From NCBI GenBank assembly GCA_016930515.1, contig JAFGGO010000063.1, positions 1 through 30,682 on the forward strand: a stretch of DNA of 30,682 nt, in the 5' to 3' direction. Shown here piece by piece: positions 2,484-16,026 of the stretch (positions are counted from its first letter, which is position 1; each line of letters opens with the position of its first letter). A model generated the notes under the pieces. The model was not told the origin of the DNA and searched no databases. It saw only the letters and a program-made list of their open reading frames with translations. Source of the DNA: Promethearchaeota archaeon (GTDB lineage Archaea > Asgardarchaeota > Lokiarchaeia > Sigyniarchaeales > SOKP01). Both the position numbers and the translations under genes were made by a program.

Positions 2484-4280
2484 ATGTTCTTCGTACAGGA
2501 AATTCGAGCAAAAATAATATCCATCCTAAAAAATAACGGTTCGGAAATCAATTATAACAATCTACGCTTTAAAATCGCCCAAGTTCTCCCTGATGGCATT
2601 TATATAAGTCAAGGTTATATCGAATTACCTGAAAACAAAAAGAGCGAATTTTTTGAGTTAATACTATCGCGTGATATAAGCTCAAAAAATTCTCCTTTAA
2701 CTGAAAAAACTATCGGTTATGAAAATGTTTTAGCAATCGTGGAATGTGAGACCCATATAAGCTCAATGATCGGAACATTACAAAAATTAGTTAATTTGAA
2801 AAAAATAAGAAATCGGGAAACGGTAATAAGCAAGAAAAAAAATTTATGTAAGGAGTATCCTTCTAAATTCGAATTGAAGAACACCAGTAAACCATATCTC
2901 CTCGTTTATCTCTTTGATAAAGAATATGAGGGGAGAAACAACGAAGCCTCTGTAATGGATCTTTATAATCAGACAAGTAAATTTAAAATGAAAGAACTTC
3001 CAGACGAGATGATTGTAGATGGTAAAGACTTATGGTTCTTGAATCCAGACCTTTTCAAGAAGAAGTTAAATGGATACGAGATCGGTTGGAGTCGACGAGA
3101 AGTATTAAATTGCCCTCAGTCGTGCTATATATGCAATAAAAAAATAATTCGCCAGCATTTTTTTTACGAACAATTGTGCATGAGTTGTGGGGATTTGAAC
3201 TATTTAAAACGCGTTCAAACAGCTGATTTATCTGAAAAGATTGCTTTGGTATCCGGCGCTCGTGTGAAAATCGGATATTATGTTTGTTTACGCTTGCTTC
3301 GGGCAGGAGCTCAAGTAATTGCGTTAACGAGATTTCCACACGATGCGGCTCTGAGATATTTGAGAGAAAAAGACTTTAATGATTGGAAGGATAGGTTGCA
3401 TGTTTACGGATTGGATTTTCGAGACATTGGAAGCGTAAATTTATTCATTCAGTTTTTAAAAAATAAATATTCCTATATAGATATCATTATTAACAACGCT
3501 GCTCAGACCGTCAGGCATCCTCCTATTTATTATAGTCACCTGATGGATAACGAGCGAAAGGCACTTCACGAGCTTCCAGAATCCACTAGGGGGCTCTTAC
3601 AGGGCATAAAAGATTTTTACGAAATTGGCAACCAGAAACTCTTGGAAAGCAATGAAAAATATGACCTCGTTCCTATGATGGTGCCCAAGTTTCAAAAATC
3701 CGCAGAACTATCGCAAATTCCCCTAAGCGAGGAAGATAACTACGAATATGGTGAAACATACCCTAAAGGACAATACGATCAATATGGGGAACAACTCGAT
3801 CTCCGAGATTTTAACTCGTGGGTAATGCGGATGGATGACGTCAGCGTTCCTGAAATATTAGAGGTTCAATTGATCAATCAAGTAGTTCCTACAATGTTTG
3901 TCAGCAAATTAAAAACAATGCTAAAAGCAAGTCCACATCAAGTAAAATATATCGTAAATGTATCTTCTCCAGAAGGGCAATTTCGATTTGATAAAGAAAA
4001 CCGCCACCCTCATACTTGTATGGCAAAAGCAGCACTAAACATGCTTACATTTAGTATCGCAGAAGATTATGCACAGGATAAGATATTCGTTACCTGTGCT
4101 GATCCTGGATGGGTTACCGAACAATTTCCCTTGAAAGGACGGAGCAAGAAAAATCGCAAATTTGCAATCGATTTAGAAGACGCTGCGGCTCGAGTGTGCG
4201 ATCCAATTTTTATGGGGGAAAACGAGCATAAATATTGGCGAGGGTATTTTTTTCGGCACTATAAAAAATCGGACTGGTAA
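2484..4280 (+). CDS. Atypical SDR-family NAD(P)-dependent oxidoreductase with Zn-finger and ~190-aa N-terminal extra domain
   Basis: CYIC...HFFYEQLCMSC Zn motif, Rossmann ALVSGARVKIG, IINNAAQT, IVNVSS, HPHTCMAKAALN (Tyr-less catalytic motif) and ADPGWV. Confidence 0.85.
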   Translation: MFFVQEIRAKIISILKNNGSEINYNNLRFKIAQVLPDGIYISQGYIELPENKKSEFFELILSRDISSKNSPLTEKTIGYENVLAIVECETHISSMIGTLQKLVNLKKIRNRETVISKKKNLCKEYPSKFELKNTSKPYLLVYLFDKEYEGRNNEASVMDLYNQTSKFKMKELPDEMIVDGKDLWFLNPDLFKKKLNGYEIGWSRREVLNCPQSCYICNKKIIRQHFFYEQLCMSCGDLNYLKRVQTADLSEKIALVSGARVKIGYYVCLRLLRAGAQVIALTRFPHDAALRYLREKDFNDWKDRLHVYGLDFRDIGSVNLFIQFLKNKYSYIDIIINNAAQTVRHPPIYYSHLMDNERKALHELPESTRGLLQGIKDFYEIGNQKLLESNEKYDLVPMMVPKFQKSAELSQIPLSEEDNYEYGETYPKGQYDQYGEQLDLRDFNSWVMRMDDVSVPEILEVQLINQVVPTMFVSKLKTMLKASPHQVKYIVNVSSPEGQFRFDKENRHPHTCMAKAALNMLTFSIAEDYAQDKIFVTCADPGWVTEQFPLKGRSKKNRKFAIDLEDAAARVCDPIFMGENEHKYWRGYFFRHYKKSDW

Positions 4281-4301: not shown

Positions 4302-5192
4302 CTACATCCATTTTCCTAAACTCGATTGGTCCATGGCGTCGGGATCCTCTCCAATATTCATGAGTTTTAGCATCACATCCAAGTTCAAGTATCTCTCGGT
4401 TAAACTCTTGATTTTTTCAAATTCACCCCCTCGAATTAATAATTCTCGAATCTTCCCCGAAGCTCGAAATGCGTATCGTACATATTGAAGTGCCGTTTTA
4501 AATCCATATATGAGAAGAAGATCGTGAACTTGAGTTAAAAATAAACCAGGACTGGAAAGACACTCCCATTCTTTCATTAATTTAGTGGAATTATTTGTTA
4601 AGCTATTAGCGTTCGATATCATCTCCTTTAATTTGTTTTTATCAATATTATTTTTTGGATATCGTATTGGGAGATTTAAAAGGCATCTGAAAGGAGTAGA
4701 TATGGTATATAAACGGAAGTAATGTTTTAAAAGACCATATACATAATATCTATTTCTGGTGGTATAACCAATTCCTTCTGTCTTCGAGTATGGGATTCCA
4801 AGGTACTCACGCACTTCCTTATAGTCTGCTAAACTCCCTTTTTCGTGAGAAATTAAAAAGGAATAAGCGGAATAAACCACGATCCCGTATCGAGCGGGAA
4901 GCACATAAACATATCGCAATGGTAAGGTGTTTTCAAGAAGTTCGAGGTCAGTGTAATTATCTAAAGACATGAACCCATTAAGCATCTCTACGATCTCTTC
5001 GGATTGCTGTAATTGTTCCGGGGTTTCGCGATGGATCCACACGCTCTTACTATAAGGGACCTTACTGGGCATGACTCTATGGTCGCCTGCTATTTTGCTT
5101 AAATAATTGAAAGTTAACCCCCATTCTGATTTCCAATGAGGACTTTTGAAGTGATACCTTGATTTTTTATATTTTTGGTGTTGATTTTCCAT
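4302..5192 (-). CDS. Hypothetical protein with C-terminal PIP-box-like motif, directly downstream of the ncRNA array
   Basis: 296-aa ORF, Tyr/Arg/Lys-rich, ending QSSLGKWM (QxxLxxW-hydrophobic). No family confidently recognised. Confidence 0.8.
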   Translation of the reverse strand: MENQHQKYKKSRYHFKSPHWKSEWGLTFNYLSKIAGDHRVMPSKVPYSKSVWIHRETPEQLQQSEEIVEMLNGFMSLDNYTDLELLENTLPLRYVYVLPARYGIVVYSAYSFLISHEKGSLADYKEVREYLGIPYSKTEGIGYTTRNRYYVYGLLKHYFRLYTISTPFRCLLNLPIRYPKNNIDKNKLKEMISNANSLTNNSTKLMKEWECLSSPGLFLTQVHDLLLIYGFKTALQYVRYAFRASGKIRELLIRGGEFEKIKSLTERYLNLDVMLKLMNIGEDPDAMDQSSLGKWM

Positions 5193-5330: not shown

Positions 5331-5387
5331 TATGAGATTCTAGTATACTTATAATAAAAAATTTATTGATCATAAATTAAAAAAGGG

Positions 5388-5505
5388 TTTAGAACAGGTT
5401 CAGAAAACGCACGTTTTCTTACAAAAAATGTAGTTCTTTTTGTATTGTTTTTCCATCATCGTCCTTTGAAATTTTAAAGAACTCAGTCAATGTGTTCTAA
5501 ACAGT
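5388..5505 (-). ncRNA. Structured ncRNA unit 2
   Basis: ACUG-[UUUAGAACA]-CAUUGA-CUGA-[GUUCUUU/AAAGGAC]-GAU-GAUG-GAAAAACAA-[UACAAAAAG AACUACA UUUUUUGUA]-[AGAAAAC/GUUUUCU]-GAACC-[UGUUCUAAA], followed by CCCUUUUUU. Confidence 0.75.
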
Positions 5506-5579
5506 TTTTACATAATAAGAAAAAAGTATTTAAAAAATTATTTACACTAAATGCCTTTAATATAATAATATAAGAATTA

Positions 5580-5698
5580 TTAGGGCAGGTTTCCGAGTAG
5601 GACTTACTCGGCAGAAAACGTGCCTTTCGGTTTTCTGTTGTTTATTCATCATTGTTCTCATTAAAACGGAAGAACTCAATTTTCGTGCCCTAAACAGT
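5580..5698 (-). ncRNA. Structured ncRNA unit 3
   Basis: ACUGU-[UUAGGGCA]-CGAAAA-UUGA-[GUUCU/AGAAC]-AAU-GAUG-AAUAAACAA-[CAGAAAAC(C)G AAAGGCA CGUUUUCUG]-[CCGAGUA/UACUCGG]-AAACC-[UGCCCUAA]. Confidence 0.75.
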
Positions 5699-5769
5699 TA
5701 CTTAAATTATAAGAAAATTTTAAAGAAAAAGTTTAGTATGAAATTAAAGAGTTTTTTAGAAAAAAGCCT

Positions 5770-5860
5770 TTTAGGACAGGTTAGCAATCAAACTATTACC
5801 CGATAAAATGTATTTTTTTATCGCTATTTTTCCACTCTGTTTTCCAGTATCCTAAACAGT
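5770..5860 (-). ncRNA. Structured ncRNA unit 4 (short variant lacking the kink-turn arm)
   Basis: ACUG-[UUUAGGAUA]-[CUG GAAAA CAG]-AGUGGAAAAAUAG-[CGAUAAAA AAAUACA UUUUAUCG]-[GGUAAU/AUUGCU]-AACC-[UGUCCUAAA], followed by GGCUUUUUU. Confidence 0.7.
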
Positions 5861-5919
5861 AATTAATTAATACATAAATCTAGTTTAAAAATCTTTTAAA
5901 CTCAATTCTAATCTGGACT

Positions 5920-8070
5920 TTAAGATATTTTACTGTTTTTGGTCATTGGAGCAATTATTCCAATTATGGGAATTGTAGGATTTTTTATTAGGAGTGGCAA
6001 TTGATTGCTTGTAATCAAAAACACTAGTGTGTCAGATGTTCGATTAGAAGTAATTGATTGAATGGAAGCACAAATTTTATGTATTAAATTCGTGTCGTAC
6101 CAAGAATCTAATATCTTAATGCGTTTTTTCCTATTACATAATTTCACGATGGTATCGAGTTTACACTTCAAAAACCCTTGGAGGTTGGTTTTGGACGCCT
6201 CGTAAAGGTTGTGAAGAAGGTTATTTTTAGAATCAAAAACCAATCCAGAACCCATGGACACGTCCAAAACACAACCATTTTCCCTTATTCCTGTTATTTT
6301 TTCGTTTAGTGATTTTTGTTCGAACTCAAGAAAATTTCCATAAGGATGCAACTCAAACATCTCCAAGACATTCTTGAGTTTTTTTTTGGGTAGGGGGCGT
6401 GATGATAATGAAAAAAAGCGTTTCAAACCATTTCGTTTGAATGAAATATATAATGAAGTTCTACCTCTTTTCTGTGATTGTAGATAGCTTGAAATTGTTT
6501 CCTTTTTATGTGTTCCTTTTTTAATTGGAAGTTCAAGGTTACAACCGCTCTTTTCAAGATGAATAAGCCATGAAATAATATTTGGTGCTATTTCAAAAGA
6601 GTGTTGATCCTTTAAGTTTAATTCTTGGACGATACAACCCAAATACTTGTTTAAAGCTGGAGATATTTCGCTCGAACGGACGATTCCTTTTGAATATTGT
6701 ACTATTGGTGCGATCCTATTTTTTGGTATCAGTTGGAGCAATTGATTTGTATCTAATTGCATTTGAGTGCAAATTATTTTGCTTAAATCTCTTTCCATCC
6801 TTACTAGAGACAACGCATCAATTGATAAGAGAAGAGTGCCATTAAATTGAATTAATTTTCCTTGATCTTGAATGATGTCATTATCGTGAACATCTTTATT
6901 TATTTTTCTAAGCTCTGCGTGGAATTTAACTCCAATATCTGAATCATTTGCTAAAATACTGATTATGTGAAAAGAACTTCTTGGATTGTGTATTATGAGT
7001 TTTTTTACCCAAACATCGCCGTTTTTTGCTAAAATTTTCAAAACTCCAAAAGGAATATCCTCCTCAAATCGGGCAAGTTTTTGAATATAGCGCTCGTAAG
7101 CGAGTTCGTATGCCTTAAATTCTTCTTTTTTAGAGATTTTTGATAAATTTAAAAGAGCTTGAGAAAAAATGTAAGGATCTTGATCTTTGACGAGAATTTC
7201 TAAGACTTCTTTTTTTATTTGCTTATTAGAAAAGTGGTGAATGACTTGCAATAGACCCCATTTACAATGCTTTTCCCCTTTTTTAGCTAAAATGGGGAAT
7301 ATTTCAGGATTACTTTTTTGGGAATAAGCCGCCATGGTTCGAAATTCTTCTGAATCAAGTATTTTATCAAATTCAAGGAAAGTTTTTATCGTACCGAACA
7401 ATAAATCGTAAATGTCCTTTCCTCCTTTATTATAATAAAGATCATTTAACAATTCTAATCGAGACATGAACCAATCTGGATTACCTGAGTTTGCAAGTTC
7501 ATATAACATCTTCTCAACTATTTCTTTAATTGCCTTAGGAGCAATTTTTGTCAAACAAGCCACGATTTGAGATTGCATGGTAGAATTGAAACCGAATGGA
7601 AGGTTTCTGGGGGTATAATCTGCTGAATAGTAAGATGTGATTAGCATCTTGCTGAGACCCACTTCAGCGATTCCTTCCACATAGGACTTGAGGGCTACAA
7701 AATGCTCCTCTGGAGGCAGGTTGAGAGTTTTTCCTTCTGATGTTTGTACGAATTCTTTTAATAAATCAAACCCACCATTCCGTAGATTCAATGCTTCTTG
7801 AGCAGAGACCGTTCTTATTGCCGTGTGAACGCAAGTAACCTCCACCTCCTCGTTTCCTTTTTTAAATACTATTCTATTATGTGATTTATTATTTACGACA
7901 TTAATGCGAGCTCCAATTTCAACATTAATTAAATCCTTAATTTTATCATTATCTAAAGTGAACCATGCCTCATAGCGATAGCCGTTTTGGAGAGGGATTT
8001 TATCAAGAATAGGGTCAAATTTAAAATATTTCATGTAATAATTGCATTTTTCGGTGTCCTGTATGGTCAT
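5920..8070 (-). CDS. Large hypothetical protein with central HEAT/LRV-like helical repeats
   Basis: 716 aa. Repeats such as IFPILAKK, VLEILVKDQD, VLKILAKNGDVWVK and IISILANDSDIGVK. N- and C-terminal domains unassigned. Confidence 0.8.
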   Translation of the reverse strand: MTIQDTEKCNYYMKYFKFDPILDKIPLQNGYRYEAWFTLDNDKIKDLINVEIGARINVVNNKSHNRIVFKKGNEEVEVTCVHTAIRTVSAQEALNLRNGGFDLLKEFVQTSEGKTLNLPPEEHFVALKSYVEGIAEVGLSKMLITSYYSADYTPRNLPFGFNSTMQSQIVACLTKIAPKAIKEIVEKMLYELANSGNPDWFMSRLELLNDLYYNKGGKDIYDLLFGTIKTFLEFDKILDSEEFRTMAAYSQKSNPEIFPILAKKGEKHCKWGLLQVIHHFSNKQIKKEVLEILVKDQDPYIFSQALLNLSKISKKEEFKAYELAYERYIQKLARFEEDIPFGVLKILAKNGDVWVKKLIIHNPRSSFHIISILANDSDIGVKFHAELRKINKDVHDNDIIQDQGKLIQFNGTLLLSIDALSLVRMERDLSKIICTQMQLDTNQLLQLIPKNRIAPIVQYSKGIVRSSEISPALNKYLGCIVQELNLKDQHSFEIAPNIISWLIHLEKSGCNLELPIKKGTHKKETISSYLQSQKRGRTSLYISFKRNGLKRFFSLSSRPLPKKKLKNVLEMFELHPYGNFLEFEQKSLNEKITGIRENGCVLDVSMGSGLVFDSKNNLLHNLYEASKTNLQGFLKCKLDTIVKLCNRKKRIKILDSWYDTNLIHKICASIQSITSNRTSDTLVFLITSNQLPLLIKNPTIPIIGIIAPMTKNSKIS

Positions 8071-8226: not shown

Positions 8227-9069
8227 ATGACTAGAATCGTACAAATTTGTCCCGTTGGGTTCGAATTTCATAGAATTTTAGAGGGCGTGAGAATACATCC
8301 CTCAAATGTGTTATATCTGCTGAGAAGCTTTAAAAAGGAGGTGAAAAAGGGCGATCCTGATGCTAAATTAATAGAAATTGCAAATAATTATGTGGAAAAA
8401 CTTTATGACCATTTTAAGCAATCAAACACGTTCACGGAGGTTCATGTGAGAGACACTAGAATTATAAGCTACACGGAAGCAATTCGCGAGTTATGCGAGA
8501 TCATTAAAAGAGAGTTAGATATGGGAGATGTAGAAACAATTTATATCAATACATCCACTTCCAATAAATTATTCGTGAGCGTTGCCATGTACGTAGGTTC
8601 TTTTTTTCCTGGTATCATCAAGTTATTTTATTTACGATCTTCTCGCTATACTATCAACCACATTCTTGACGAGGACATGGATAAAGAAGAAATAAAGAAA
8701 ATCTTTACTGAACTTGGAATGACATACAAAAAGGAGGGAGAGACATATCAAAACATCGACATTCCCGTTTATCCAATTCAAATTCTTTCTAATGAAAACC
8801 AAATAATTCTAAAAACGCTTAACGAGATGATCGACGAAGATAATGATTGGATCACCTTTATGAACCTTTTAGCTAGGATGGGGGAGAAAGAAAAGGATAA
8901 GACGATTAAAATGAAATACAGCCATCACATAAAAAAATTAAAGCAACAAATCCTCCTCGAGGAAAAGGTTCACGGAAGACAGAAATCCTATAAGCTAACC
9001 GAAGCTGGAAAGATATTGGGTTTGATTTATTCGTATTTTCACTTGGACAAACCACATGTTTCAAGATGA
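8227..9069 (+). CDS. CARF-like (DUF6293/Csa3-type) plus winged-HTH transcriptional regulator
   Basis: N-terminal IVQICPVGFEFHRI...VLYLL and IYINTSTSNK. C-terminal wHTH HIKKLKQQILLEEKVHGRQKSYKLTEAGK. Confidence 0.75.
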   Translation: MTRIVQICPVGFEFHRILEGVRIHPSNVLYLLRSFKKEVKKGDPDAKLIEIANNYVEKLYDHFKQSNTFTEVHVRDTRIISYTEAIRELCEIIKRELDMGDVETIYINTSTSNKLFVSVAMYVGSFFPGIIKLFYLRSSRYTINHILDEDMDKEEIKKIFTELGMTYKKEGETYQNIDIPVYPIQILSNENQIILKTLNEMIDEDNDWITFMNLLARMGEKEKDKTIKMKYSHHIKKLKQQILLEEKVHGRQKSYKLTEAGKILGLIYSYFHLDKPHVSR

Positions 9070-9081
9070 TCTCTCTTGGCT

Positions 9082-10296
9082 CTATTTAGGATTTATAGAG
9101 GTGATTTGATCGTTAAATTTTATCCTTTCGAGCTTGTTTATCACTCTCATGCCAGTCACGGCGTCTATAGTGTTCGGTAGCTTGAAAATCCTGTGAAGAT
9201 CAAAAGAACCATCTTTAGATCGGAAATTTTCGTTATCAGTGAGTGCAACTCCCTCATCGTCCTTGAGTTTTATTATTAAATTCTGAATTTGTTCAACATC
9301 CAATTCTTTTAAATTCTTCCCTTCCTCTATACAATACACGTGATAACCCTTAAATCCACTATGAATGACTCGAACGCTCCATCCCAAATCTACTAATTTT
9401 TCCGTTAGGATGTCTCTTTTTACAGCAGCTTCCTCTAAACACTTAAGACAAAATCCTTCCTTTCCTATCACATGAGGCTTGTGATCAGAATCTACATCAA
9501 ACGCCGCAATGATTCGAGGTTGTGGATATCCTCTGCCATAATAATCTCGTTGAGGGATCAGCATCGAAGCTAACGAATAATATATTCTTACGGGTAATTG
9601 TCCTTGCCTGAACAAATATAAAATTGATTGTTTTATTTTTGATGTTGGCGTGTGTTTAGCCGTTTTTGTTAACTTGCGTTTTATTCCATACCAGTTTCCA
9701 CTACCAAGAAGAACACGAACATGTCTACTTGGTATAAATGGTTCAAACCAATTGGGTAATTCAAAATCTTCTTCGTAATACTTTAAAACAGTTCCATTAT
9801 CTAAACGAACTTTATATACTTGTATCTTTGGAGGGATTTCCAAATTAGTCTCAAATCTGGGAGCACAAATAACACAAGTCTGTAATCCCAATCGTTTACG
9901 CTTATATTCGTAAAAGTCAATCCATTTTTGAGTGATGGTGGTCTGTTTGAGTTCGATCATCGTCCTTTCAGATTCAACATCAAGACCATCTATTTCTGTA
10001 GATTGGCCGTCTTGGAATTTCATTGGTACCGAATGATAAAATTCCAATCCTAATTCCTTCGATAAAACGGCCAACCCTCTCACTTCGTACCAATAATTTC
10101 GGGTGCGGAGTTTCTTGTTGTCTTGGAATATGACGGCAACGCCGTGTGGAATTTTAAATCTCGCAATTTCGTATGGTAAAGGATCGATTCTGATCCCGTC
10201 GAGATCGTTTATAATATATAATAACAAGGTGTCAAGTTCGTGTTCTTGAATATTTCTTGATATGGTATTTTTACCTTGTTGAATGATGAATTTCAT
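9082..10296 (-). CDS. Fusion of a PD-(D/E)XK nuclease-like domain and an archaeo-eukaryotic primase (PriS-type) domain
   Basis: TEIDG...MIELK nuclease motif. AEP motifs AFDVD, HSGFKGYHVY and DLHRIFKLPNT. H..H..CLKC Zn site after motif I. Confidence 0.8.
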   Translation of the reverse strand: MKFIIQQGKNTISRNIQEHELDTLLLYIINDLDGIRIDPLPYEIARFKIPHGVAVIFQDNKKLRTRNYWYEVRGLAVLSKELGLEFYHSVPMKFQDGQSTEIDGLDVESERTMIELKQTTITQKWIDFYEYKRKRLGLQTCVICAPRFETNLEIPPKIQVYKVRLDNGTVLKYYEEDFELPNWFEPFIPSRHVRVLLGSGNWYGIKRKLTKTAKHTPTSKIKQSILYLFRQGQLPVRIYYSLASMLIPQRDYYGRGYPQPRIIAAFDVDSDHKPHVIGKEGFCLKCLEEAAVKRDILTEKLVDLGWSVRVIHSGFKGYHVYCIEEGKNLKELDVEQIQNLIIKLKDDEGVALTDNENFRSKDGSFDLHRIFKLPNTIDAVTGMRVINKLERIKFNDQITSINPK

Positions 10297-14301: not shown

Positions 14302-14895
14302 TTATTTGTTTCTCACTACAAGCTTGATTTTAGAAAAACCTTCTTTTAATTCAAAATTAAATCCCATTCCATCCAGAACTTCTTCCAAGAATGTTTTAAT
14401 GAATTTTTTTTGAATATCTGATCCTAACAAGAGTGTGAATCTATTTGGTGCGTCCATCACTATGTTAAAGAAGTTACAAGCCTCTAACCTTCGTATCACA
14501 TTTTCCACGGATATTAGGTTCAGATCTTGGGTGAATTCTTCTGCGTGAGCTTTACCTATTGAGCGATTCATTTCCCAGAATGTATCACATTTAGGTGATT
14601 CTTCAACGAATTTCAAAAACGAAAGGTAATGATCAATATCTAAGATGATGTGTTCGCCGTGAGAAAGCAAATCCAAGTAAAAATTGATTCGTCGAGCAGT
14701 TCCATTCTTATTTCCTTCTAGTAATTTGTTGAATTTATGGTAAAATTTAATCGCTTTTCTTACAAGTTCCGATTGTGACTCCTTCGTTTCCTCTCTGATG
14801 TCTTGTAACAAGTTAAAAGTACCGTCGTCCATTGCAATCGTAACCCTATTGTTTATTTTACCTCCTCCATTGGTGTTTCTTTCCATTTTAATCAC
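14302..14895 (-). CDS. Ribbon-helix-helix (CopG-type) transcriptional regulator with C-terminal V4R-like domain
   Basis: RVTIAMDD...ESQSELVRKAIKFY RHH motif. C-terminal GEHIILDIDH and IGKAHAEEF. Confidence 0.85.
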   Translation of the reverse strand: MIKMERNTNGGGKINNRVTIAMDDGTFNLLQDIREETKESQSELVRKAIKFYHKFNKLLEGNKNGTARRINFYLDLLSHGEHIILDIDHYLSFLKFVEESPKCDTFWEMNRSIGKAHAEEFTQDLNLISVENVIRRLEACNFFNIVMDAPNRFTLLLGSDIQKKFIKTFLEEVLDGMGFNFELKEGFSKIKLVVRNK

Positions 14896-14966
14896 GGTTT
14901 TATCCCTCTTCTGATTTTTTCTTTCAGAAGTTCATATTAATTATTTTTTCGAAGTTGAAAAACAAA

Positions 14967-15043
14967 TCATAATTTTTCGTAAAAATCGCATAATCGTAAT
15001 AACTATTTCTTATAATTTCAAATAGTTTATTAATCTATTTAAA
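14967..15043 (-). promoter_or_regulatory. RHH gene promoter with operator-like repeat array
   Basis: Minus-strand TATA TTTAAATA at 15036-15043. TCATA/TCGTA/GCATA/TCGTA repeats at 14967, 14977, 14988 and 14994. Confidence 0.5.
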
Positions 15044-15324
15044 CATTACTGTAAATGATTAAGATTCCGACAGATCCATAATGCACTTGCAATATCCATC
15101 ATCTTTATTGCTATGCATTTGAACTCGAATTCTCCCTATCAAATCACAATTTTTCATTATCACTCTAACAGTTTTAAAAAATCTCAAATACACCTTTTAA
15201 AAAGGGTAATCCATAGTTTACAACGGTGGATCTAAGCTATAATAAGAATTGATGGTCGCATGATATGTTAAGAAATAAGGAATAAAGATAATTATTATAA
15301 AAACAAGTTGTTATTGATTTTATC

Positions 15325-16026
15325 TTATTTTTTGGTGTTTTCTCTTTTGGCTTTTCTTTTAGCAGCTTCTTTCCGTTTTTTCCTCATTTCTTCTTCCATA
15401 GTAAAATCTTTTGCGCAAAAATCTTCAACGGGACAGATGTTGCATCTTGGGTATGTTGGAATGCAGAGTTGTTGACCGAACCTCACGAGTGTTCTTGTAG
15501 CCTGTAACCATAGATTTATTGGGAGTATTTTTTTTAATGCTTCTTCAGATTGTTCGGGTGTTTTTGTTTTTATCCAACCTAACCGATTAGGAATGCGATG
15601 CATGTGAGTGTCCACGGCAAGGGCAGGAATGTTAAAAGCAAAGACTAAAACGCAATTTGCTGTCTTTGGTCCTACGCCTGGAAGATTAACTAGCTTTTCA
15701 AAATCGTTAGGAACATTATCTTTATATTTTTCGTGTATGATGGTGGATGTCTCCTTTATTCTTTTCGCTTTTTGTTTGTAATAGCCAGATTTCCTAATAA
15801 CTTGCTCAAGGTCCTTAATATCTGCTTCCGACATTGTTTTAGGTGTATTATATTTCTTAAACAAGCTCTCTGTAATCTTTTCGGCAGTACTATCTCTTGT
15901 TCTTGCCGATAGCATTGTTGCAATTAAGATTTTAAATGGATTCGATTGCACTTTTACTAAATCGCCTAAAAGTGCTTCTCCATCTAATTTTTTTTCTATT
16001 TTTTCCAAAGTATCTTTATAATTCAT
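15325..16026 (-). CDS. nth: Endonuclease III (HhH-GPD DNA glycosylase/AP lyase, 4Fe-4S)
   Basis: LSARTRD, LPGVGPKTAN, AVDTHMHR and a C-x6-C-x2-C-x5-C cluster. Confidence 0.96.
   Translation of the reverse strand: MNYKDTLEKIEKKLDGEALLGDLVKVQSNPFKILIATMLSARTRDSTAEKITESLFKKYNTPKTMSEADIKDLEQVIRKSGYYKQKAKRIKETSTIIHEKYKDNVPNDFEKLVNLPGVGPKTANCVLVFAFNIPALAVDTHMHRIPNRLGWIKTKTPEQSEEALKKILPINLWLQATRTLVRFGQQLCIPTYPRCNICPVEDFCAKDFTMEEEMRKKRKEAAKRKAKRENTKK

Follow-up and report, generated by a model that had tools for sequence, protein, structure and literature searches.

The gene at positions 4302 to 5192 of the window (the whole stretch of DNA analysed, 30,682 nucleotides) encodes P0001, a protein of no known family or fold; novelty lies in the family and its predicted fold, in its private small RNA, and in their joint occurrence with a nuclease-primase fusion. 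P0001 would be the hallmark subunit, itself non-catalytic, of an Asgard module not described before, which comprises one to four kink-turn small RNAs, the basic, all-alpha P0001 and, usually, a fusion of a PD-(D/E)xK nuclease with PriS. Taken as a whole, the proposal that P0001 is a non-catalytic, RNA-associated adaptor by which this module is brought to PCNA-loaded DNA is evenly poised on the models and comparisons given below, all of them computational. A PIP tether in itself is a well-known device.

The P0001 gene and its family

Translation of 4302-5192 on the minus strand gives a single open frame of 296 codons, with the following parts:

4302..5192, minus strand: coding sequence of P0001, an orphan protein of 296 aa, with the stop codon at 4302-4304 (translation, homologues)
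4329..4358, minus strand: acidic linker NIGEDPDAMD, P0001 residues 279-288, running from the last core helix to the motif (translation, model)
4305..4328, minus strand: PIP-box-like tail QSSLGKWM, P0001 residues 289-296 (translation, genome motif scan, co-fold)

The tail and the acidic linker before it are exactly as the earlier note on this DNA had described them. The protein is basic (pI 9.2; family range 8.9-10.1) and its all-alpha core is predicted to span residues 20-283, approximately. The host genome (4.0 Mb, 35% GC, assembly 94% complete) encodes ESCRT-II EAP30 and gelsolin-domain proteins, which mark it as that of an Asgard archaeon.

P0001 is a real gene, given an orthologue of 77% identity (P0002) on the syntenic contig L004 (GCA_016839425.1) and some 16 homologues. 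An exhaustive HMMER pass through 1.84 billion cluster representatives recovered these approximately 16 true relatives and nothing else. The protein had no match in Pfam, and none to a defence, phage or NCBI family in PADLOC, PHROGs or NCBIfam; its family profile found nothing real among all PDB sequences (E 0.47 to a designed protein), and no published description of the family or module was found in the literature. Two relatives carry the source names Candidatus Lokiarchaeia and Promethearchaeota. One member, P0006 (898 aa, on a 4.3-kb contig), bears the NCBI label Minisyncoccales bacterium (CPR), every other named member being Asgard, and its contig is probably mis-binned. P0018, a 970-aa repeat protein, was dismissed as a spurious homologue. 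The N-terminal fragment of a second family copy, broken by stop codons, was observed in the host genome (L020, G000:C101:20692-20922); the sister genome's second paralogue, P0007, is its closest relative (61%), and no RNA unit was detected alongside it.

Predicted fold and relation to the neighbouring primase

The AlphaFold2 model of P0001, built from a 14-sequence alignment, consists of 16 helices and no strand (pLDDT 84.9, pTM 0.85), and its N-terminal half folded alone again gave all helices (pLDDT 86.4). Structure searches with the whole model returned at best E 0.48 and TM 0.18 in Foldseek against the PDB, Z 5.2 to designed helical bundles in VIA-align against 48,161 chains, TM 0.33 in the ESM Atlas, and E 0.11 and TM 0.14 in BFVD; the N-terminal half reached Z 3.1 at best, and a language-model atlas gave no usable match. 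The earlier note had named an unrelated metabolic fold among the outcomes that would count against it; neither among solved nor among predicted structures did the model find a match, whether to a metabolic protein or to any other. These scores are unusually low for a helical protein; they do not in themselves prove a new fold, and they indicate that no known fold was found for the predicted structure.

In 19 family sequences, invariance is confined to P99, P167 and P215, and near-invariance to L83, R169, L235, R267 and Y268; R169, R267 and Y268 are the only near-invariant polar residues, to which the 14-sequence set adds R101, R239 and R243. No conserved Asp, Glu or His was found in the family alignments. 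Because the protein has a basic pI and lacks conserved acidic residues and His, it is better read as a binder or scaffold than as a metal-dependent enzyme.

The earlier note had suggested that P0001 is a catalytically altered AEP/RRM-like fold, which would make it a relative of the neighbouring primase that has degenerated as an enzyme or become a pseudo-enzyme. What speaks for this is that, to the eye, three hydrophobic segments follow one another in the order of AEP motifs I-III, which they resemble: GFMSLD (residues 73-78), VYVLPARYGIVVY (95-107) and LKHYFRLYTI (155-164). All three are indeed present in P0001, but the parallel with the AEP motifs does not hold, each of them lying within a helix of the model. 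The confident all-alpha prediction is joined by the lack of any BLASTP alignment between P0001 and the neighbouring 404-aa AEP, by an hhalign probability of 0.15% between the two family profiles, by the missing conserved acidic and His residues, and by the absence of any AEP chain among the structure-search matches. Kinship with the primase is thus ruled out as far as these comparisons reach, and we regard it as exceedingly improbable.

Kink-turn small RNAs beside the family genes

Four small RNA units are encoded on the minus strand upstream of P0001:

5218..5332, minus strand: small RNA unit 1, made up of a closing stem, the kink-turn hairpin and two more hairpins
5387..5507, minus strand: small RNA unit 2, followed by a U6 tract
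5578..5700, minus strand: small RNA unit 3, with the kink-turn UUGA-hairpin-AAUGAUGA
5769..5862, minus strand: small RNA unit 4, with the kink-turn hairpin deleted, followed by a U6 tract

In general, a unit is built from a closing stem, a hairpin with the kink-turn (read on the minus strand, UUGA-stem-loop-stem-GAUGAUGA) and one or two additional hairpins; each unit also has a TATA-like box approximately 30 nt upstream. The orthologue of unit 4 in L004 (7293-7412) has its kink-turn hairpin intact, and the copy in the window may be a decaying one. At gathering thresholds, Rfam gave no match for the window, and a tRNA search of it was likewise negative. When a covariance model was built from 13 units, the four units of the window were its only matches in the 4.0-Mb genome.

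An RNA unit lies just upstream of a family gene, on the same strand, at 11 independent loci, and elsewhere in the locus at two more; the linkage to the array proposed in the earlier note, with homologues adjoining the RNA motif, is thereby borne out. Units matching the covariance model stand directly upstream in the window (4), L004 (4), L006 (3), L003/L012, L013, L048, L049 and L050. The units of L031 (upstream) and L034 (downstream) match the model more weakly and are both clearly real on inspection, that of L029 was spotted by eye and folds as expected (z = -3.1), and G136 has one unit elsewhere in its locus. In L031, an IS605 TnpB (Cas12f-like) fragment is found at 7368-7901, between the RNA unit and a UDG-fused family gene, and the module also holds an HhH-GPD glycosylase (14653-15567). 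A weak match to the RNA model in L040 was dismissed on inspection; at about 3245-3345 this locus holds a tRNA-like gene with an apparent intron, approximately 1.6 kb from an AEP-nuclease locus without the P0001 family.

The RNA is present at L048, beside the paralogue P0007, with no nuclease-primase within 9.9 kb, and a search of the six genomes with the nuclease-primase but not the P0001 family, and of two of their loci, yielded no RNA unit. It is therefore P0001, and not the primase, that the RNA tracks, and this is the best available argument for P0001 as the protein partner of the RNA. The adjacency could instead be the sign of a cis-acting leader or of shared regulation, since unit 1 runs into the start of P0001, ending approximately 25 nt upstream of its ATG without a U-tract. 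Against a simple leader stand the TATA-like boxes that the units have of their own, their U-tracts, the arrays of three to four units, and the L034 unit downstream of its gene.

The nuclease-primase fusion

The enzyme encoded with P0001 in the window is the following:

9082..10296, minus strand: 404-aa fusion of a PD-(D/E)xK-like N-terminal half with a PriS-type AEP

Its PriS half is matched in NCBIfam (E 8e-8), and the DxD, SGxxGxH and D motifs are invariant (D267, D269, S313, G314, G317, H319, D362/D366). The distribution of both partners was assessed in a phylum sample of 400 genomes, counting solid matches to the P0001 family: the family was found in 7 genomes and the fusion in 13, all 7 family genomes having the fusion and 6 having the fusion only. 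Two more family matches (E near 1e-4) lay within 1370-aa proteins and are probably spurious. Where P0001 is missing, the AEP is flanked by other, unrelated ORFs; the 426-aa and 178-aa ORFs beside it in G225, G204 and G057 were considered as divergent relatives of P0001 and rejected (hhalign 0.3% each).

P0001 could be viewed as an accessory subunit of the nuclease-primase, similar to PriL or PriX, which tethers the enzyme to PCNA and does not bind the small RNAs; these would then be bound by L7Ae or by the enzyme, or be cis-regulatory leaders of the P0001 mRNA. Such a role would fit the adjacency of fusion and family gene in 10 loci (the loci named being L003, L004, L006, L013, L014, L016, L017, L029/30, L031, L034 and L049) and the presence of the fusion in all 7 family genomes of the sample. 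It would also fit the extra AEP being without a nearby PriL of its own; the pair of housekeeping PriS and PriL is encoded elsewhere in the genome, on contig C138. PriL and PriX are helical and non-catalytic, as P0001 is predicted to be, and P0001 is likewise encoded beside a PriS-type AEP. Unlike PriL, however, the P0001 family conserves no Cys that could bind an Fe-S cluster, and hhalign against the PriL of this genome gave 0.2%; no PriL or PriX chain was among the listed structure matches of P0001, a weak or missing match not excluding a shared fold. Its presence, moreover, follows the RNA more tightly than the AEP, as seen at L048 and in the AEP loci and genomes without P0001. On balance, a subunit that serves the enzyme and leaves the RNAs aside appears unlikely.

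Genomic setting of the module

The remaining genes around P0001 in the window include:

2484..4280, plus strand: 598-aa zinc-ribbon and SDR-like protein, convergent with P0001
5920..8070, minus strand: 716-aa protein without Pfam match
8227..9069, plus strand: CARF-like (HFX_2341_N / CARF3) and winged-helix regulator (PADLOC E 3e-15)

The 716-aa protein has an orthologue of 715 aa in L004 and one of 852 aa, which begins with an LRR, in L006; its observed occurrence was restricted to the two kinds of locus in which PIP tails and arrays of three to four units are found. The CARF-wHTH regulator was found within the module in the window and L004 only. The 598-aa protein is conserved in five loci (L003, L004, L006, L012 and L031) and matches the phage family phrog_3142 (FabG-like, E 4e-45), with a weak DUF6602 match in the L006 orthologue; DUF6602 has been described as an RmuC-like (nuclease) domain in an integron defence cassette (bioRxiv 10.1101/2024.07.02.601686). 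For a module of RNA and primase, such an SDR-like enzyme is an odd companion to find conserved. Positions 131-2004 of the window, on the module's variable side, hold three tandem paralogues (199, 225 and 196 aa) with a weak match to the DUF2070 membrane protein, together with repeated DNA (repeat family D1).

That the module is accessory is clear: the genus has five other genomes, of which four show neither the P0001 family nor the nuclease-primase, and one of these four, G005, keeps the nadE-amt-PII synteny up to the edge of the missing module. A mobile element was considered and not adopted, as no integrase or capsid gene is nearby, two species have the module at one and the same position of the chromosome, and in L029 the trio stands among housekeeping genes on a 160-kb contig. 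Its patchy occurrence, its nucleases, the CARF gene beside it and the fusions to LRRs incline the balance towards defence, though PADLOC gave no match for P0001.

Specificity and recurrence of the C-terminal tail

C-terminal PIP-box clients of PCNA are well known in archaea (Fen1, PolD DP2, RFC-L, RNase HII and family-4 UDG). Like theirs, the motif of P0001 has the form Qxx[LIVM]xx[aromatic][hydrophobic] at the extreme C-terminus, behind a flexible linker: it occupies the last eight residues of the protein, and in the AlphaFold model the chain is disordered from residue 284 to 296 (pLDDT <50), after a confident core. P0001 differs from these clients in its body, which is predicted to be helical and non-catalytic and corresponds to no known replication or repair enzyme, in its linkage to small RNAs, and in that most of its relatives are without the motif.

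The specificity of the motif was assessed in this genome by a strict definition, Q..[LIVM]..[FWY][FWYLIM] ending no more than 3 residues from the C-terminus, applied to ORFs of at least 120 aa. It was found in 7 of 3460 ORFs, about 3.6 being expected from a per-position frequency of 2.6e-4. Besides P0001, these are PolD DP2 (QQKLSDFF) and Fen1 (QKSLDIYLTD), both textbook PCNA clients, two DUF72 proteins, one deoxynucleoside/thymidylate-kinase-like protein and one gelsolin-domain protein. In this organism the motif thus marks mostly DNA-metabolism proteins, PolD DP2 and Fen1 among them. The two DUF72 proteins and the kinase-like protein are themselves candidate unrecognised PCNA clients, with the tails QRSINDFFK, QKKLEDFF and QMNINKFF:

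G000, C78:2037-2906, C120:3984-4793 and C139:4005-4727 (L024, L027 and L028): the two DUF72 and one kinase-like PIP-tailed proteins

Within the family, a strict terminal motif occurs in P0001 (QSSLGKWM), P0002 (QSNLGKWI), P0008 (QTNVDDWLK) and P0011 (QSSIEDWF). P0008 and P0011 are only 35-37% identical to P0001, and their linkers differ and cannot be aligned. The last 69 nt of the gene show 8 differences between the window and L004; 5 are synonymous, including one in the codon of the motif Leu, and the 3 replacements fall at x positions or at the final hydrophobic residue, so that Q, L and W are kept. The motif is thus present in 4 of 16 members, or 3 of about 13 lineages, the other 12 members having other endings. 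With a background of at most 0.2% per protein, at least 3 of approximately 13 lineages would have the tail with a probability of about 2e-6, and the tail is unlikely to be chance. The conservation across homologues that the earlier note proposed to check was therefore found in part, in the 77% orthologue, P0008 and P0011, and is absent from the rest of the family; as the tail is missing in 12 of 16 members, PCNA docking cannot be the core function of the family.

Other members carry different appendages on the same core. P0012 has a C-terminal domain of the family-4 UDG type and an acidic tail, P0006 an N-terminal HhH_5 DNA-binding domain, and P0009 an N-terminal LRR; a C-terminal zinc ribbon is present in P0019, P0021 and P0022, and a coiled-coil or basic tail in P0010 and P0014, while P0003-5 consist of the core without appendage. 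The PIP, UDG and HhH appendages all point to DNA.

Predicted docking on PCNA

PCNA was not found in the 94%-complete assembly by PF00705, PF02747 or tblastn, and 11 of 12 relatives have it; the gap is probably one of assembly. Since the PCNA of this genome was missing, that of a same-genus genome (L010), 91% identical to a second same-genus PCNA, was used as a stand-in and co-folded with P0001 residues 250-296. The ipSAE was 0.62 in three of three runs, and the best of three controls reached 0.39; that mark is attained by 51 of 78 solved complexes and by 2 of 108 mismatched pairs. The runs shared at least 81% of contacts, with a partner pLDDT of at least 58. P0001 residues 286-293 and 295-296 are predicted to contact PCNA residues 41, 44-48, 127-135, 231-232 and 248-255, which form the interdomain connecting loop, the hydrophobic pocket and the C-terminal strand, i.e., the canonical PIP groove at which the known clients dock.

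PIP-PCNA complexes have been solved many times over, and for that reason the pass in co-folding shows likeness to a PIP peptide and not binding, and may reflect solved complexes already familiar to the folding model. The tail could be a chance look-alike or a motif for another partner, with P0001 working off the clamp. The 12 family members without the motif are in line with this, as are the gelsolin-domain protein among the seven ORFs, a probable false positive which indicates that look-alikes exist, and the final M or I, less typical than F, Y or L. The recurrence of the motif in three lineages, at the extreme C-terminus and behind unrelated linkers, argues otherwise; so do the dominance of DNA-metabolism proteins in the genome-wide list, a predicted interface that is canonical and scores 0.23 above the controls, and the UDG and HhH domains of sister members, which also point to DNA. 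A tail that does not bind PCNA at all is thus quite improbable in our judgement. The specificity in the genome, the three-lineage recurrence, the disordered tail of the model and the co-fold at the canonical site, above controls, all sustain the PIP-box reading of the C-terminus made in the earlier note, and the tail of P0001 probably docks on PCNA.

Discussion

In the proposed mechanism, the conserved helical core of P0001 would hold the small RNA (with L7Ae probably joining it at the kink-turn) or the nuclease-primase, or both, and the variable appendage would carry the assembly to DNA. In the species of the window, this appendage would be the flexible acidic linker and QSSLGKWM, inserted into the PIP groove of PCNA, and the RNA-protein complex may then act on clamp-loaded DNA, for instance at replication forks or repair intermediates. 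We infer both the physical binding of PCNA and of RNA by P0001 and its biological role, for which accessory genome maintenance, defence, repair or repriming are the candidates.

A more far-reaching version would make the assembly a PCNA-docked ribonucleoprotein, in which P0001 places both the nuclease-primase and, together with L7Ae, the kink-turn RNAs on DNA that bears the clamp, and the RNA programmes the enzyme as guide, primer or template. We hold this to be tentative and doubtful; if true, it would constitute an RNA-directed system of defence or repair at the DNA level, private to Asgard archaea and with no known counterpart.

Several known systems share features with the module. As in retrons and DRT systems, the gene of a structured non-coding RNA stands immediately upstream of protein genes, a polymerase gene among them, and the distribution is patchy and accessory; in contrast to them, the polymerase here is of the AEP type, joined to a nuclease, and not a reverse transcriptase, the RNA has an L7Ae-type kink-turn, and the putative PCNA-docking adaptor has no counterpart there. 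The kink-turn hairpin of the units is C'/D'-like, as in the ribonucleoproteins of L7Ae (box C/D, H/ACA, RNase P and SRP), whereas the units have neither terminal C/D boxes nor an ACA box, match no Rfam family and occur only beside a P0001-family gene, and P0001 resembles no known protein of such particles.

If the preferred reading of P0001 as an RNA-associated adaptor is true, it would provide a small-RNA-associated protein that is tethered to the sliding clamp, and would show how an RNA and nuclease-primase module of Asgard archaea finds its DNA substrate. The appendages of the family (PIP, UDG, HhH, zinc ribbon and LRR) form a natural domain-swap series in which DNA is indicated as the site of action, and an eight-residue tail, a PCNA and one to four defined RNAs offer an experimental handle on a module that sits in the closest archaeal relatives of eukaryotes.
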